Source of the DNA: a virus
Taxonomy: Duplodnaviria > Heunggongvirae > Uroviricota > Caudoviricetes
Reading direction: 5' to 3' (one strand)
IMG/VR virus record: IMGVR_UViG_2734482776_000003
DNA: 23,543 nt
This document shows positions 15,001-21,000 of this stretch, piece by piece. Each line of letters begins with the position of its first letter. Within the stretch, counting starts at the first letter, position 1. Made by a program: the position numbers.

Positions 15001-18000
15001 TATCATCCGTTGCCCTCATTATCATTATTCACCACCAGTCGGGGTGGTGGTGGCACCGCAAAACGGTTAGCCGCTTTTTTCGCCGCGTCACCTTTTGCCG
15101 ATTTTTTACCGGCATCCCCTTTTTTGTGGTGCGTGAACTGCGCCAGCTTATAAGCCGCATCCAGCGCCAGCCTGGGGTCGGTATTAATGTTCTCCACCAG
15201 AAGACGCCCCATCGCTTTCACCGGATCGGGAAGACCGTCCTCCATATACTCAATACCAGGAGATATCACCACGGGCGGTGGCATCTCCGGATTTGTTTCG
15301 TCCGGCTGTGGTATTGCAGCCGCCTCACGGCGACGGGGTTTATCCTCCTGCTCTGATTTTTTCTGCCGGTAAACAGGAACCTCATCCACCTCCACCGTCT
15401 CGCACTGTTTACGGGCTATAAACGCAAGCACCTCCGGATCTTTTGCCAGCTGCGAGCCTTTAACCCTGGCTGTCTTCGCCGAATAACCGGCGGCAATGGC
15501 TGACGCTGTTTTGTTTTTCCCGGACATGAGCGCCAGCGCAAATTTTCGTTTTTGCGTTGTCAGCACAGCCTCCTCCCGGGTCCAGAACGCACTCAGCCGG
15601 GTATGGTTCAGCCCATTTTTCCCGGCGTCTCATGCCGCAAATGTTAACTGCTGCCTGGTTAACATTTGCTGAAAAAGCCAGTTAACATTTTTTCCGCGCA
15701 ACAAACTGAATAATAAAGATAAAAACCGCAAAAATGCCCGGACAGCCAGTTAACATGTTAACTGCCCTGAAACGGGAATTTTTTCTCTGCGTGAGAGGGG
15801 GCGCGGTGTCCGGAGCGATCGTTTTTTACGCCGAATGATACCCCCCCCGGTCGGGTTACAGTCCGATGATGTCGTCCGCTCTGCCACTACCTCCGGACAC
15901 CTCCGGCAGCGTCGGGTCCGGCATACCACCCGCCGCTTCACGAGCAGACTTTTGTCGATGGCATTCGGTACAGAGCGTCCAGAGATTCGTCTCCTCATTA
16001 CCACCACCGAACTGAAGTGCAATTCGGTGATCGAGTTCACTGTCACAGAGGTCAACCACACGACCACAGAGACAGCACTGCCCGGCATCCCTGAGCCAGA
16101 TATGACGCTTGAGGGAAACACGTGCACTGCCACTGACACGACGCTGTTCACCCTTCAGAATATTCACCCGTCGGGTATTCAGTGTTTTGATTCTGCTCTG
16201 GAGTGTACGAAGCTCAGCCATGTAAAATCCCCGTCATATGGCAATCAGTAAAGGAAATAAATATGTCATCGAAAAACCGGACCCGCAGAACCACAACCCG
16301 CAATATCCGTTTCCCCAATCACATGATTGAACAGATCAACATCGCCCTTGAGCATAAAGGGTCCGGTAACTTTTCAGCGTGGGTTATTGAAGCCTGCAGG
16401 AGAAGGCTGGCAACAGATGCAACGCACCTGCGCCCGGCCAGCATGACAAATAACGAGAAATGAACGTTCGGTTACAGGAGCAGGTACCCACTGTCCTCCA
16501 ACAATATTTCATCTTCATACCCGGCGGAACAAGACTTACCCAGCCGGGATGTACAGAATAACAACAGAGTGATAATTAATTTCTGATGAAATAATCAGGG
16601 TGCAGAAGGACTAAAGATAAACGTTTTCTTCACGCCTTTACGCGGCCTGTCCTTCTCAAATCGCCATTTTGCCATCGCCTTTACAACCTGCTCATCAAAC
16701 AGATGGTGCGGCTCTGAACGGATAAACTCAATTCGGGTGACAGTACCATCAGCACCAATATCAAACTTCACATCAACCCGTCCCTTTATATAATTTGCCG
16801 CTGCATAGGCCGGATATTGTGGTAATGCCTTAACCAACTGTCGGGGCATATCTGTTTTATGTTGCGTACAGCCCATAACCAGAGAAGACAACAAAATAAT
16901 TAACGGAAGATTTCTTTTCATTTTCATTCCCGGCACAGATAAGAATAAGTCTTATTCTAACAATGCCACCCTGTCGGCCATCAATCCTCTGCTTAATGGC
17001 AACGACAATTATCCGACTTAAATCACAAATCAGACACATGACATAACAGGTCATGCGAGGTAACACATCGTCCGGTTTCTTCCACCATCGCACCGGACCA
17101 GCGACCATGAGGGGACAACGCCGCGCTCCGTTAACGCGGTAAACCCCGGTGTGTATCGTTTTTGATTATCCCCGCACACTCGCGCAGAGGAGTCTCCCTG
17201 TCGGGCTGCGGTCTCTGTTAATGAGGGAATACAGCGACGATACGGCGCATCCGCAAAACTTAGTTCAGGCACTGAGTGCGGATATAGTCCTGTGCCCCTT
17301 CCAGCTGCTTCTGCATTGTCATCAACCGTTCTCTGAGGATGAAATAATCCCGTTCAGCGGTGTCTGCCAGTCGGGGGCCGGTTGCATTATCCACGCCGGA
17401 GGTGCCGGTGGCTTCACGCACGGTACCGGAGCAGGTGGCGTTGATCCGCAGGCGCTTACGACCAGCGGCAATATCAGCACGCAGAGTTTCATTTTCAGCT
17501 CTCGCATCGGCTAATTCCCTCGAGTATTTTGCATCGAGCGCAGCAACATCGCGCTGGCGCACCTGCATATCAGTAATGGTTGCGTTTGCCAGCTCCAGCT
17601 CTCTGGCTTTTTTATCACGCTGCGCTTTGTAGGTGATGGCGTTATCGCGGTAATGATTCAGCCCCAGACTAAGCGCACCACAGACCACCAGCAGAATAAC
17701 GGTAAACGCGGAAAGCATTCGGTTTATGCTCACCCCAGCATCCCCGACGAAGATAACATCATCCAGCCCATGGAAAGAAAAAGAGCAACCAGCATTAGTG
17801 AAAATGAAATGCCGACGATTACACAGAGGATCTTCGCCAGCATTATGAGTTTGTCTGACATGTTTAATCCTCCCTTCACGCTTTCAACGCAATGACCAGT
17901 TTTGCCAGCCCATACAGCATCGGAGACACAGCGATACCGACCGCCACCCACTTAATAGCAAAAGCCTGTGCTCTGCTGATGTCATCAGTTACTGGCGCTT

Positions 18001-21000
18001 TCAGTTCAAGGCCGTTTTTCATAGTCAACCTCAACAGAATTCGTTTATACTTTTCCATGTTCTCCCTTGCCTTATCCAAGGTCAGAAACACAAAACCCCG
18101 CTTGCTGCCAACAAACGGGTTTTTTACTTTTATTCACTTAGGTTTTGCCAGTTCGCAGGATTTCGTGTTATCCGTCCGCGTTGGCCAACGTCATTTTTCA
18201 GCAAAATATTCGGCTTATCTGTCGATTCCCCAGCACGCCAGCGCGCTCTCCTGGTCACGACGGGATACCTGACCATAACAGTTATTTGAGCGGATACGGC
18301 AGTCTCTGCCACCGTCCTTAATCCACCAGCGAAGCGCCTCACACGCTCCCCTGCGATCTCCTGCATTAATTCGTTTATAAAACGTCGACGGGAAACACTT
18401 ACCCGGGCCAATGTTGTAAGGACAGAATGACGCAATACCCGCTTTCTGGGGTTCAGTCAGTGGCACTTTGATGTTTTTCTCCACCCATGCCAGCGCCTTA
18501 TCACGCTCAATGGCGTTAACCCGGTCGCATTTCCCCTTCGACAGCTTCATGCCAGGAATAACAGGCTTACCATCCACCCGGGTGGCTCCACGGCAGATGG
18601 TCCAGATCCCCGCACCATCACGGTATGCCGTAGTGTGGTTACCTTCTTTTTCGTCAAGAAACTGGTCGAGGATTTCAGGCGCAGAAGCCCCTGCGGCAAT
18701 CAACGCCAGAACGGCAGCCGACAGGCCGTATTTTATTTTTGTGTTCATGGATATATTAAATATTCAGCCGCTGTCCCAGGCCCACTAAATACGCACTTTC
18801 AGAGAATCAGTAATTCTTCCCGGTAGCTTTCCTTTGTAGGTTATCAACACATTTTGCGCCTCTAAAATTATGGGGCGCTTTTCCAGCAACGGTTCGTTCC
18901 CTTCACATAACCCGGCAGCAATATCCATGAAAAACTGCTTCGCCTTCTTTTTCGCCTCAGCTTCGTAAAACTCCAGCGGGGCACCTTCAACACGATCAAG
19001 ATCAATCACCACATTTGGCAACAACAGTGACGTATACCCACCCGTTTCCAGCGCCACAGTAACAGTAATCTTATCCGGGTAATTATTTATCCCTTTAACA
19101 ACCAGTTCGTATTGTTTATTCATCGTCTACTCTCCCCGCGCCGCCTTACGCCGGTCTTCTTTAATTTTGAAATACAGGTTCGTCAGATATGTCAGCAGAC
19201 CAAACAGCAGACTCCCCAGCACGCCTATTGCCGCCCACTGAGACGGGGAAACCCTGTCCAGCAACTGCAGGAACCAGTAGCCCGTTCCCACCGCTGACGT
19301 GGTGTATGACACACCTGTTGTGATTTTTTCCATCTGGTACATACCCCGTCTCCCGCAATCCGGAAGCTCACAACATGAAAAAGGCCAGCAGCAGTTTACT
19401 GATGGCCCTGACCCCCGTTACAGCATCATGACCGATTCGGGTTGCGGTTCAGTCGCATCGGCGACCGGTGATTCAGGCTGAACTTCACCGCTCTCTGCGG
19501 TGGTATCTCCCGCTTCAGTCGCTGGCTCTGCCTGTACACCAAGCAGCTCATCCAGAATGGCATCCACTTCTGCATCAAGACGTGCTTCCAGCTTATGGCG
19601 GAGTTTCTGTTTCAGTGCGCTCAGGACTTCTTCAGAGCGCAGGACGTCCTTCACTGCTTCAGCAGTGACCAGGGATGTAATTTCTGACATGGGATTTTCT
19701 CGTCGAAAGGTGTGATTAAGAAAGTTGCCGCTAAATGAGCGGCTCTTCGGGTTTGCTTCCGGCTGACTGACTGGCGCTGATTTTCTCAGCGGCCCTTTTG
19801 TCAATCTGTCTGCGCCAGAAGTCACGCATGGCCCGGTATCCACCCGAAAGGAGATACAGCACACAGACTGCCGTACAGAAGTACAGCATCACCTGATGAA
19901 TAAAAGTCATAATTTCTTACCGTTATTGTTGACAATAAGAACTGTTTTCATTTAAAAAAACAGAGCACGAAAGTATCGTTCCTTTATATTTCTCCATGGG
20001 TATTACCACCGCCAGTCCATTCCGGTAACTGGCGGCTTTTTTTATCATGCCGCAGTGTCTGTGCTGTTCACTTCCACCGCAATGCTGTCAATCAGCAGCG
20101 TATACGTCGCCGATTTTGATATATCGGTCAGTTGCAGTTTGTCCACCGCCCCCGATGCCGGTGACTTCACCAGTGTGAACGCCGCTCCCCGTTTCTCATC
20201 CAGTACTGGTGTCACCTGAATGCTGTTGTTTCCGGCAAACTCAAAAGCCAGCGTGTGCCATCCGTTATCAAAGACCCCGAATGTATCCAGCTTCGCATTC
20301 GGCTTCCTGTGATGCATCGCGTTCAGGTTCGTCGTATCCGTCTGCAGGAAGAAAGACATCAGCATATCGTTACCTTCTCCTGACAGCATCACCCCCTCCG
20401 GCAGGGACGACAACTGCCAGTAAATGCCCAGGGCAAACTGATTCGGCACCAGTGAACCCGGCAACTTAAACCGTACGCTCACACGTCCGCCCTTCTTCAG
20501 TAACTCCGCACCCTGTCCGGCTGCATCATGCTCCAGAAACCAGATGTGGTTTTCCGGTTTGTTCAGTTGCAGAGCCTTACCTCCCGTAGCCCCCGCATCA
20601 CTGACCACCGCTTCAGCAATGTTTTTGTTAACACTGTCTCCGCCCGCCGGTTTGTGATAATAGCGCCAGCCCTGTGATGCCAGGTCTTCGCCGGATGCCA
20701 GCAGACTCATCAGGGTTCGGTTACTGACCGGGGCTTCCGTCTCTCTCTCCGGACCTTCACCGGAAGGTACGGTGGGCTTCACCATATCAGGCTGTTTTCC
20801 GGTAATGAATTCAGCGGTTCTCCCGGCGTGCACCAGAATCGCCGTTGCCAGACGGTCGGAAATAATCCCGCGGCGAGCCCATGAACTGAAATGGCTCGCC
20901 CTGTCCTGTGACGTCCAGGTGGCTGAGCTGTCACGCCATTTCGAACCGTAATATCCGATACCCGGAATGTCCGGGTCTTCTTCCGGTTTGTTCGTCGGCA

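Follow-up and report, generated by a model that had tools for sequence, protein, structure and literature searches.

In phage P2 (gene order Y-K-lysA-lysB-lysC), lysA encodes a membrane protein that is not essential; the gene lies between those for the endolysin and for the counterparts of Rz/Rz1 and is co-expressed with the lysis genes, and LysA is an antiholin-type modulator of lysis timing. For the lambdoid phages, Hendrix and Juhala developed the concept of morons, which in their classical form have a promoter of their own, are followed by a terminator and are expressed in the prophage state. An 'ant moron' has been described in P22-like phages (PMC2629481). In phage Mu, lysis requires gp25, the 'releasin' (DUF2730), a protein of 99 aa with N-out/C-in topology, an anionic cytoplasmic domain and almost no periplasmic part (PMC9239132). 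In the present study, we analyzed a 23,543-nt stretch of a Caudoviricetes genome (IMG/VR record IMGVR_UViG_2734482776_000003; hereafter, the window), in which two small open reading frames (ORFs), ORF1 (60 aa) and ORF2 (43 aa), are located between the endolysin gene (R) and the spanin genes Rz/Rz1. We found that the R-Rz gap is a cargo slot with variable contents and that ORF1 and ORF2 are separable genes that form no obligate pair. In addition, ORF1 travels as a module consisting of a terminator-like hairpin, a Shine-Dalgarno (SD) sequence and the ORF.

The locus was compared with these systems. By analogy, ORF1 and ORF2 would resemble P2 lysA in gene position and in expression with the lysis genes; however, LysA is larger and contains several transmembrane (TM) segments, whereas ORF1 and ORF2 encode peptides with one TM segment each and show no detectable homology to LysA. 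Mu gp25 and ORF1 are both small, membrane-tethered and essentially cytoplasmic, and the gp25 gene lies at most a few genes downstream of an endolysin of the signal-anchor-release (SAR) type, just as ORF1 follows SAR endolysins in E. coli and Salmonella. Unlike gp25, ORF1 is only 60 aa long, tail-anchored, presumably N-in and cationic, so that topology and charge are opposite; it has no match to DUF2730 or any other Pfam family and no sequence relationship to gp25, and it is absent from many working cassettes. As in morons, ORF1 and ORF2 are present or absent at a fixed junction among related genomes, the slot contents vary (ant included), terminator hairpins bound the module, and the same gene occurs at different junctions in different phages. 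Unlike in classical morons, no promoter was found for ORF1 and ORF2, the hairpin lies on the upstream side, and both genes are packed, at the level of translation, into the late operon. They fit a known kind, the accessory small membrane-protein genes or morons of phage late operons, and what is unusual for such genes is the upstream terminator together with the lack of a detected promoter.

The original prediction had placed two small membrane-protein genes between the endolysin gene and Rz/Rz1, and both were confirmed on the minus strand (Table 1). The interval between the R stop codon and Rz was 481 nt (to a GTG) or 496 nt (to an ATG), in agreement with the predicted insertion of about 480 bp into a direct endolysin-Rz order. 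Since the endolysin and Rz genes overlap directly in lambda, and likewise in Qin of K-12 (rrrQ/rzpQ), the DNA carrying ORF1 and ORF2 represents an insertion relative to those cassettes. The cassette region was 100% identical to a lambdoid prophage of E. coli MFDS1006657, in which the NCBI annotation pipeline (PGAP) labels both ORFs 'hypothetical protein'.

The contents of the slot were surveyed in loci collected for having ORF1 or ORF2, a sampling that is biased toward such loci. The order R-ORF1-ORF2-Rz was observed in the majority of ORF1 loci, and R-ant-ORF2-Rz in about 40 loci, while in Salmonella the order was R-ORF1-Rz, the holin was HP1-type and the SAR lysozyme was a different one. Further arrangements were also found. 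In some prophages, an N6/N4 DNA methyltransferase gene (PF01555, E 1e-32; L023, 3337-4272) was inserted between ORF2 and Rz behind ORF1, its stop overlapping the Rz ATG; a 28-aa '...AIRWW' peptide followed ORF1 in front of Rz (L010); a divergent 31-aa ORF1-family peptide preceded ORF2 (L147); and a distant ORF1 homologue (45% identity) lay between R and Rz in phage GER2. The slot was empty in lambda and Qin. Accordingly, ORF1 occurred without ORF2 in Salmonella, and ORF2 occurred without ORF1 in the ant-type loci and in phages 933W and P13374. Some genomes (P0079, P0084 and L084) had rearranged copies, with an ORF2-like 5' half fused to the C-terminal TM region of ORF1 or with an extra ORF1 C-terminal fragment behind ORF2; these fused and fragmentary copies indicated recombination within the slot.

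To describe the coding evidence for ORF1, we calculated the ratio of nonsynonymous to synonymous variation (pN/pS) from 19 distinct full-length DNA variants. The ratio was 0.14 in the ORF1 frame, compared with 0.93 and 2.67 in the other sense frames and 0.85, 0.26 and 3.89 in the antisense frames; all pN/pS sums in this study pool sequence pairs that are not independent and serve as indications only. The antisense value of 0.26 was expected to be low because that frame shares wobble positions with ORF1. Between the window and Salmonella, pS was 0.47 and pN was 0.12. Codons 2-12 were constrained like the remainder (pN/pS 0.22 vs. 0.13), and the 60-aa form of ORF1 was thus favored over the 48-aa form chosen by some gene callers. 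Residues G16 and P22 were invariant in the ORF1 family even at 40% identity. Judged by these substitution patterns, ORF1 is certainly a genuine coding gene. An antisense ORF of 126 aa (17892-18272, plus strand) was considered as the true gene and rejected, since the sense frame had the lower ratio (0.14 vs. 0.26) and possessed an SD and a start codon.

The predicted properties of the ORF1 protein were consistent with the earlier description of a soluble N-terminus and one C-terminal TM helix. Residues 1-37 carried a net charge of +4, and the single hydrophobic segment was C-terminal (best 19-residue window 38-56, Kyte-Doolittle 1.9, with Gly, Ala, Ser and Pro), followed by only 2-4 residues. 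ORF1 is thus presumably tail-anchored in layout and N-in, with a cationic cytoplasmic N-terminal region of about 36 aa. An AlphaFold2 model from a 15-sequence alignment contained a helix at residues 3-15, a loop and a helix at residues 29-59, with a modest confidence (pLDDT 70). A Foldseek search of this model against BFVD gave no match at E <= 0.001, and a PDB profile search with ORF1 returned a sole match at E 0.59, which was not meaningful. The original prediction had also assigned near-consensus SD sequences at ideal spacing to both genes. Both sites were strong, and for ORF1 only the spacing was overstated, as its GGGAG core ended 3 nt before the ATG, a short distance; a conserved 5-bp hairpin (CCUUG/CAAGG) also overlapped the ORF1 SD.

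For ORF2, the comparison of 26 distinct variants from ORF1-type and ant-type cassettes gave a pN/pS of 0.47 in its own frame versus 0.83 and 1.21 in the others, the own frame being lowest in both halves; on the close set, the value was 0.71, which was ambiguous. The frame of 43 codons was open in about 150 of 159 loci, and residues 1-26 were nearly invariant across cassette types. In the ant-type cassettes, the ORF2 ATG was changed to ATA, and an upstream in-frame ATG overlapping the ant stop took over (MEWWLMISDKL...). These results suggested that ORF2 is very probably coding, with looser constraint than ORF1. Its SD, with a 6-nt spacer, was the strongest of the cassette, overlapped the last base of the ORF1 stop and was kept in most ORF1-type loci. 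The peptide had a grand average of hydropathy (GRAVY) of 1.64, a TM core at residues 11-29, and K4 and K10 on the N-terminal side, which fits the earlier description of it as almost purely hydrophobic. Two origins were considered for ORF2 and rejected. As a relic of the N-terminal TM domain of Rz, it showed no DNA similarity, and the protein alignments were short and inconsistent in register; TM-restricted shuffles against Rz N-terminal TM regions gave p values of 0.007-0.03 before multiple-test correction. As a paralogue of ORF1 (region of likeness VAVGIAVSPML), it gave an hhalign probability of 6.7% and a shuffle p of about 0.06.

The boundaries of the ORF1 module were then defined by alignment. 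The first ~95 nt after R were common to all E. coli architectures, and divergence began at the hairpin, which went with ORF1. Cassettes of the ORF1, ant and GER2 types all contained this post-endolysin segment, Salmonella contained part of it, and it also matched alone in genomes without either ORF. The ATG of ORF1 in the window arose by a 26-nt deletion relative to the Salmonella/GER2 form, which starts at GTG. A hairpin of the form AAAA(C/G)CCCG...CGGGG(C)TTTT was found 5-66 nt upstream of the ORF1-family gene in 9 of 10 contexts. In a nine-sequence alignment, 90% of the cells were paired, compared with 40-60% when the partners were slid; compensatory double changes were present in 6 of 15 pairs, and the observed covariation score was reached by none of 500 shuffles. 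With its GC-rich stem, U-tract and conserved structure, the hairpin fits an intrinsic terminator, for which termination itself is predicted. A long-range antiterminator, formed by pairing of a conserved GGAUAACACGAAAUCC box with the 3' half of the terminator, appeared in the single-sequence minimum free energy fold (z -2.4) and was discarded, being unsupported by the consensus fold of divergent homologues.

Members of the ORF1 family were found at several late-operon junctions. They followed tail-fibre and tail-fibre-assembly genes, twice at the prophage-host junction (P0231 and P0242), lay behind a capsid gene in a row of small TM genes (P0245), and formed tandem paralogues before a portal-like gene (P0243). 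The family also recurred at lysis genes: in E. coli and Salmonella cassettes with a SAR endolysin, immediately behind the PG_binding_1 endolysin gene of a myovirus-type element, where two small lipoprotein genes come next (P0237), and at a distance of 1 nt upstream of Rz in a remnant prophage without holin and endolysin (P0234), whose ORF1-family protein occurred in 1647 index blocks. We read the PG_binding_1 protein as probably containing a GH19-like motif. Two further observations were made. A short box, CGGATAACACGAAATCC, with a 4-bp GGAT/ATCC stem (18150-18175, minus strand; also L085, ~3858-3880), was conserved on the downstream side of two endolysin genes, in E. coli and Salmonella, that are unrelated to each other, and may be a module-boundary or recombination sequence. 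In the Salmonella locus (CP030203.1; L085, 3708-3812), an uncalled hydrophobic ORF of 32-34 aa (MAAMICFVAAFMLACDGRSGWGWFLLVGLIVM) lay upstream of the conserved intergenic box and overlapped the SAR lysozyme gene at its 3' end.

Regarding expression, a simple consensus scan, which a weak or non-sigma-70 promoter could escape, detected no sigma-70-like promoter in the R-ORF1 interval of the coding strand. The terminator scan placed the hairpin upstream of ORF1 and gave no terminator before Rz. Since a terminator stands directly upstream of ORF1 and no promoter was found, transcription would depend on late read-through by Q-antiterminated polymerase and would not take place in the lysogen; late expression of ORF1 and ORF2 by this route is most likely, as judged from these signals. 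A small RNA (sRNA) in the R-ORF1 intergenic region was also considered and rejected, since no Rfam match was obtained at E <= 1 and the Pas sRNAs map upstream of the holin gene; a search of Tree et al. 2014 with lysis-gene terms found nothing bearing on such an sRNA.

The junction of ORF2 with Rz was compared across the 159 loci, and two classes were distinguished. In class A, the ORF2 TGA was followed by a purine-rich SD and then ATG-AAC-CGT (MNRV...). In class B, which includes the window, the ancestral ATG was ATA and the SD was lost. Because of this change, Rz in the window could start either at GTG 17733 or at ATG 17718. The ORF2 TGA overlaps the in-frame GTG (as GTGA), and the PGAP start is the ATG 12 nt downstream; thus, the predicted overlap of the ORF2 stop with the Rz start stands if Rz starts at the GTG and fails if it starts at the ATG. 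The initiation signals of Rz itself in the window were weak (SD about -6 kcal/mol). Translation of window-class Rz is probably coupled to that of ORF2, as the loss of its own ATG and SD in class B would make Rz dependent on ribosomes terminating at ORF2. ORF2 always adjoined a lambda-type Rz, apart from the methylase insertion described above. Moreover, many ORF1-family members ended in RWW-stop (CGG-TGG-TGG-TGA) and ORF2 ended in LG-stop (CTG-GGG-TGA), both of which are SD-like for the next gene; therefore, these small ORFs appear to be built for translational coupling. Strings of tandem small TM-protein genes, several ending in '[IV]RWW-stop', were also observed in two other loci (L184, 2501-3403; L173, 325-737). 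These endings suggest that coupled mini-genes form a wider family in the late operons of phages.

The original prediction had recognized neither sequence, and database searches led to the same result as far as function is concerned. ORF1 matched phrog_1115 over residues 1-59, phrog_4493 (E 3.4e-29) and also PHROG 3246, and ORF2 matched phrog_4906 over its full length (residues 1-43); no function is attached to any of these families. PHROG 1115 and 4493 were both matched by all 12 divergent ORF1-family members examined. No Pfam (E <= 0.1) or NCBIfam match was obtained for either ORF, holin families included (the true holin scored 7e-33), and the PADLOC defence models gave no family at E <= 1. 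In a collection of 5.8 billion proteins, ORF1 corresponded to 113 clusters (E <= 0.001) and ORF2 to 117 clusters (E <= 0.01), nearly all 'hypothetical'; where an organism was named, it was Escherichia or, for some ORF1 clusters, Salmonella, the exception being a single partial entry under the name Pseudomonas aeruginosa. When 1.84 billion cluster representatives were searched exhaustively with a profile, only 21 were retrieved for ORF1. ORF1 and ORF2 thus already have entries as hypothetical families in PHROGs and RefSeq.

The insert DNA was present in 1937 of 5426 complete E. coli genomes, with at least 80% coverage in 990. Among phage records, ORF1 was found in 14 and ORF2 in 191, including many Stx1a and Stx2a (Shiga toxin, Stx) phages, where the ORF2 matches covered the first 25-26 residues owing to the BLAST low-complexity filter. 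Phage 933W (NC_000924.1; L185, 3421-3570, corresponding to 27420-27569 of the record) carried an intact, unannotated ORF2 homologue (...MISDKLITLVKSLCVLVGISFLVMLVAIFFSTAWRVLTLSGLVG) in the 153-nt gap between ant and Rz, and the ORF2 equivalent in P13374 was ORF53. A scan of genome contigs with the ORF1 alignment gave 27 pattern matches, none of which was confirmed by tblastn. Literature searches with the accessions, the peptide strings and small genes at this position found no mention of ORF1 or ORF2, and a survey of Stx-phage cassettes (PMC8136144) did not discuss them.

On this basis, we tentatively prefer a reading in which ORF1 and ORF2 are two independent late-operon accessory genes in a variable slot, expressed only late, with ORF2 coupled to Rz and with both peptides modulating inner-membrane steps of lysis; taken as a whole, this statement is a real possibility that falls short of being probable. 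Q-modified polymerase from the late promoter would read through the hairpin, so that ORF1 and ORF2 would be made alongside the lysis proteins and be silent in the lysogen. Translation of ORF2 would deliver ribosomes to Rz/Rz1 by termination-reinitiation. In the weakest step, the peptides might fine-tune late inner-membrane events, that is, pinholin triggering, SAR-endolysin release or spanin function. This modulatory role is favored because of the predicted late-only expression, the recurrence beside endolysins and Rz in two unrelated phage types, and a topology resembling that of Mu releasin. Several points weigh against it. The cassettes of lambda, of phage 21 type and of 933W bring about lysis in the absence of ORF1; since family members occur at tail-fibre, capsid and portal-like junctions, the ORF1 family is not lysis-specific; the constraint on ORF2 is moderate, and its C-terminus is frameshifted in 8 of 159 loci; and we found no literature on the expression or phenotype of either ORF. 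The pooled nature of the pN/pS sums and the simplicity of the promoter scan count on the same side.

The strongest rival holds that the insert is selfish or neutral cargo combined with a coupling device: ORF1 would be a moron-like mobile module without a lysis role, hitch-hiking at terminator-bounded late-operon junctions, and ORF2 would be an upstream ORF that keeps Rz translated while its peptide is functionless. The occurrence of the ORF1 family at several unrelated late-operon junctions fits this view, as do a locus in which the module lies between ~70-nt direct repeats carrying terminators (L174), the use of the slot by ant and the methylase, the moderate constraint on ORF2 with tolerated frameshifts at its C-terminus, and the SD-like terminal codons by which many family members feed the next gene. 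However, purifying selection on ORF1 is strong across Escherichia and Salmonella (0.14) and G16 and P22 are invariant, which argues that the peptide itself is selected, and the near invariance of ORF2 residues 1-26 across cassette types points in the same direction. We regard this explanation as somewhat unlikely. A bolder version of the lysis role would make the ORF1 family (PHROG 1115/4493) a trans-acting regulator of pinholin and SAR-endolysin timing, restricted by the terminator to Q-antiterminated transcription, and ORF2 a spanin-linked peptide that couples Rz/Rz1 synthesis to its own membrane insertion; such a role is conceivable and, in our judgment, unlikely.

Membrane-level exclusion or defence, in which one or both peptides would block DNA entry or another superinfection step like small prophage exclusion proteins, appears improbable. 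Both products are predicted to be small prophage-borne inner-membrane proteins, and the ORF1-family members after tail-fibre genes at prophage ends occupy a typical position of exclusion or conversion genes; nevertheless, the absence of a detected promoter and the conserved terminator directly upstream make expression from a repressed prophage unlikely and thereby weaken a classical superinfection-exclusion role, both genes are co-oriented and tightly packed with the late operon, and neither matches a PADLOC model. A toxin/immunity or type I toxin-like pair, in which one peptide depolarizes the membrane and the other neutralizes it, is highly improbable: the size and hydrophobicity of ORF2 are like those of type I toxins, and the two adjacent genes are probably co-translated, but each is found without the other in many genomes, Rfam and promoter scans gave no antisense RNA or promoter signals, no PADLOC match was obtained, and ORF1 and ORF2 share no significant similarity.

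The remaining features of the cassette are listed in Table 1, and several neighboring genes were recorded as side observations. The YdfR/DUF1327 gene between holin and endolysin constitutes a second accessory slot of the same cassette, and K-12 Qin has YdfR too. After Rz, where lambda carries bor, a TonB_C-domain lipoprotein gene (lipobox LVMGC; 16595-16936, minus strand) was found; its family, phrog_1267, bears the PHROGs label 'Rz-like spanin', apparently in error. The annotation of the identical prophage includes an ompC-like porin gene within the tail cluster (NZ_CP073589.1, 506576-507739), between a tail protein gene and the gene of minor tail protein L, outside the window or at its edge. 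Four tandem copies of the STnc100 sRNA (Rfam RF02076; 119-142 bits vs. a gathering score of 47) were detected at 22237-23216 on the minus strand. They lie within a ~1.9-kb stretch without PGAP annotation, upstream of a SASA esterase gene, which is the stx position in Stx phages; according to a 2026 preprint, 'PasD' sRNA genes are located immediately upstream of this esterase.

Table 1. Features of the lysis cassette in the window, in the order of transcription.
Feature	Position	Strand	Evidence
Class II holin (phage 21 S-type), first gene of the lysis cassette	19127..19342	-	PF04971 E 7e-33; PGAP 'class II holin family protein'
YdfR/DUF1327 gene, holin/endolysin interval	18785..19123	-	PF07041 E 5.5e-39; PGAP 'YdfR family protein'
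Endolysin (Phage_lysozyme), SAR-like Gly/Ala-rich N-terminus MNTKIKYGLSAAVLALIAAGASAPE	18215..18748	-	PF00959 E 1.6e-24
Conserved post-endolysin intergenic segment	18120..18214	-	Alignments
Terminator-like hairpin with A-tract, GC stem (18119-18097) and T-tract, bounding the ORF1 module on its 5' side	18087..18125	-	Terminator scan
ORF1 SD AAGGGAGA	18061..18068	-	Anti-SD duplex -8.4 kcal/mol
ORF1, 60 aa, predicted tail-anchored inner-membrane protein	17876..18058	-	phrog_1115 E 2.5e-41; PGAP WP_051694738.1
ORF2 SD AAGGGAGGA	17868..17876	-	Anti-SD duplex -11.3 kcal/mol
ORF2, 43-aa hydrophobic peptide, single TM, directly 5' of Rz	17730..17861	-	phrog_4906 E 9.4e-21; PGAP WP_024213850.1
Rz i-spanin, start GTG 17733 or ATG 17718	17260..17733	-	PF03245 E 5e-50
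Rz1 o-spanin lipoprotein, embedded in Rz	17322..17507	-	PF06085 E 1.7e-21

ORF1 and ORF2 are carried in the lysis cassettes of a large proportion of E. coli lambdoid prophages, and between roughly one-fifth and one-third of the complete genomes contain the insert. Both the phage burst and the release of Shiga toxin depend on when lysis occurs. Should one of the peptides act on lysis or on the expression of the spanins, a textbook pathway of medically important phages would gain a component that it has lacked, and if ORF1 is a regulator of lysis timing, the timing of toxin release in Stx prophages would also be set by ORF1. If the peptides are inert, the annotation of 933W-type cassettes is still corrected, and Rz of this lineage still probably relies on an upstream ORF for its translation. 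In addition, the hairpin-linked ORF1 module provides a compact example of very small genes moving between phage late operons.

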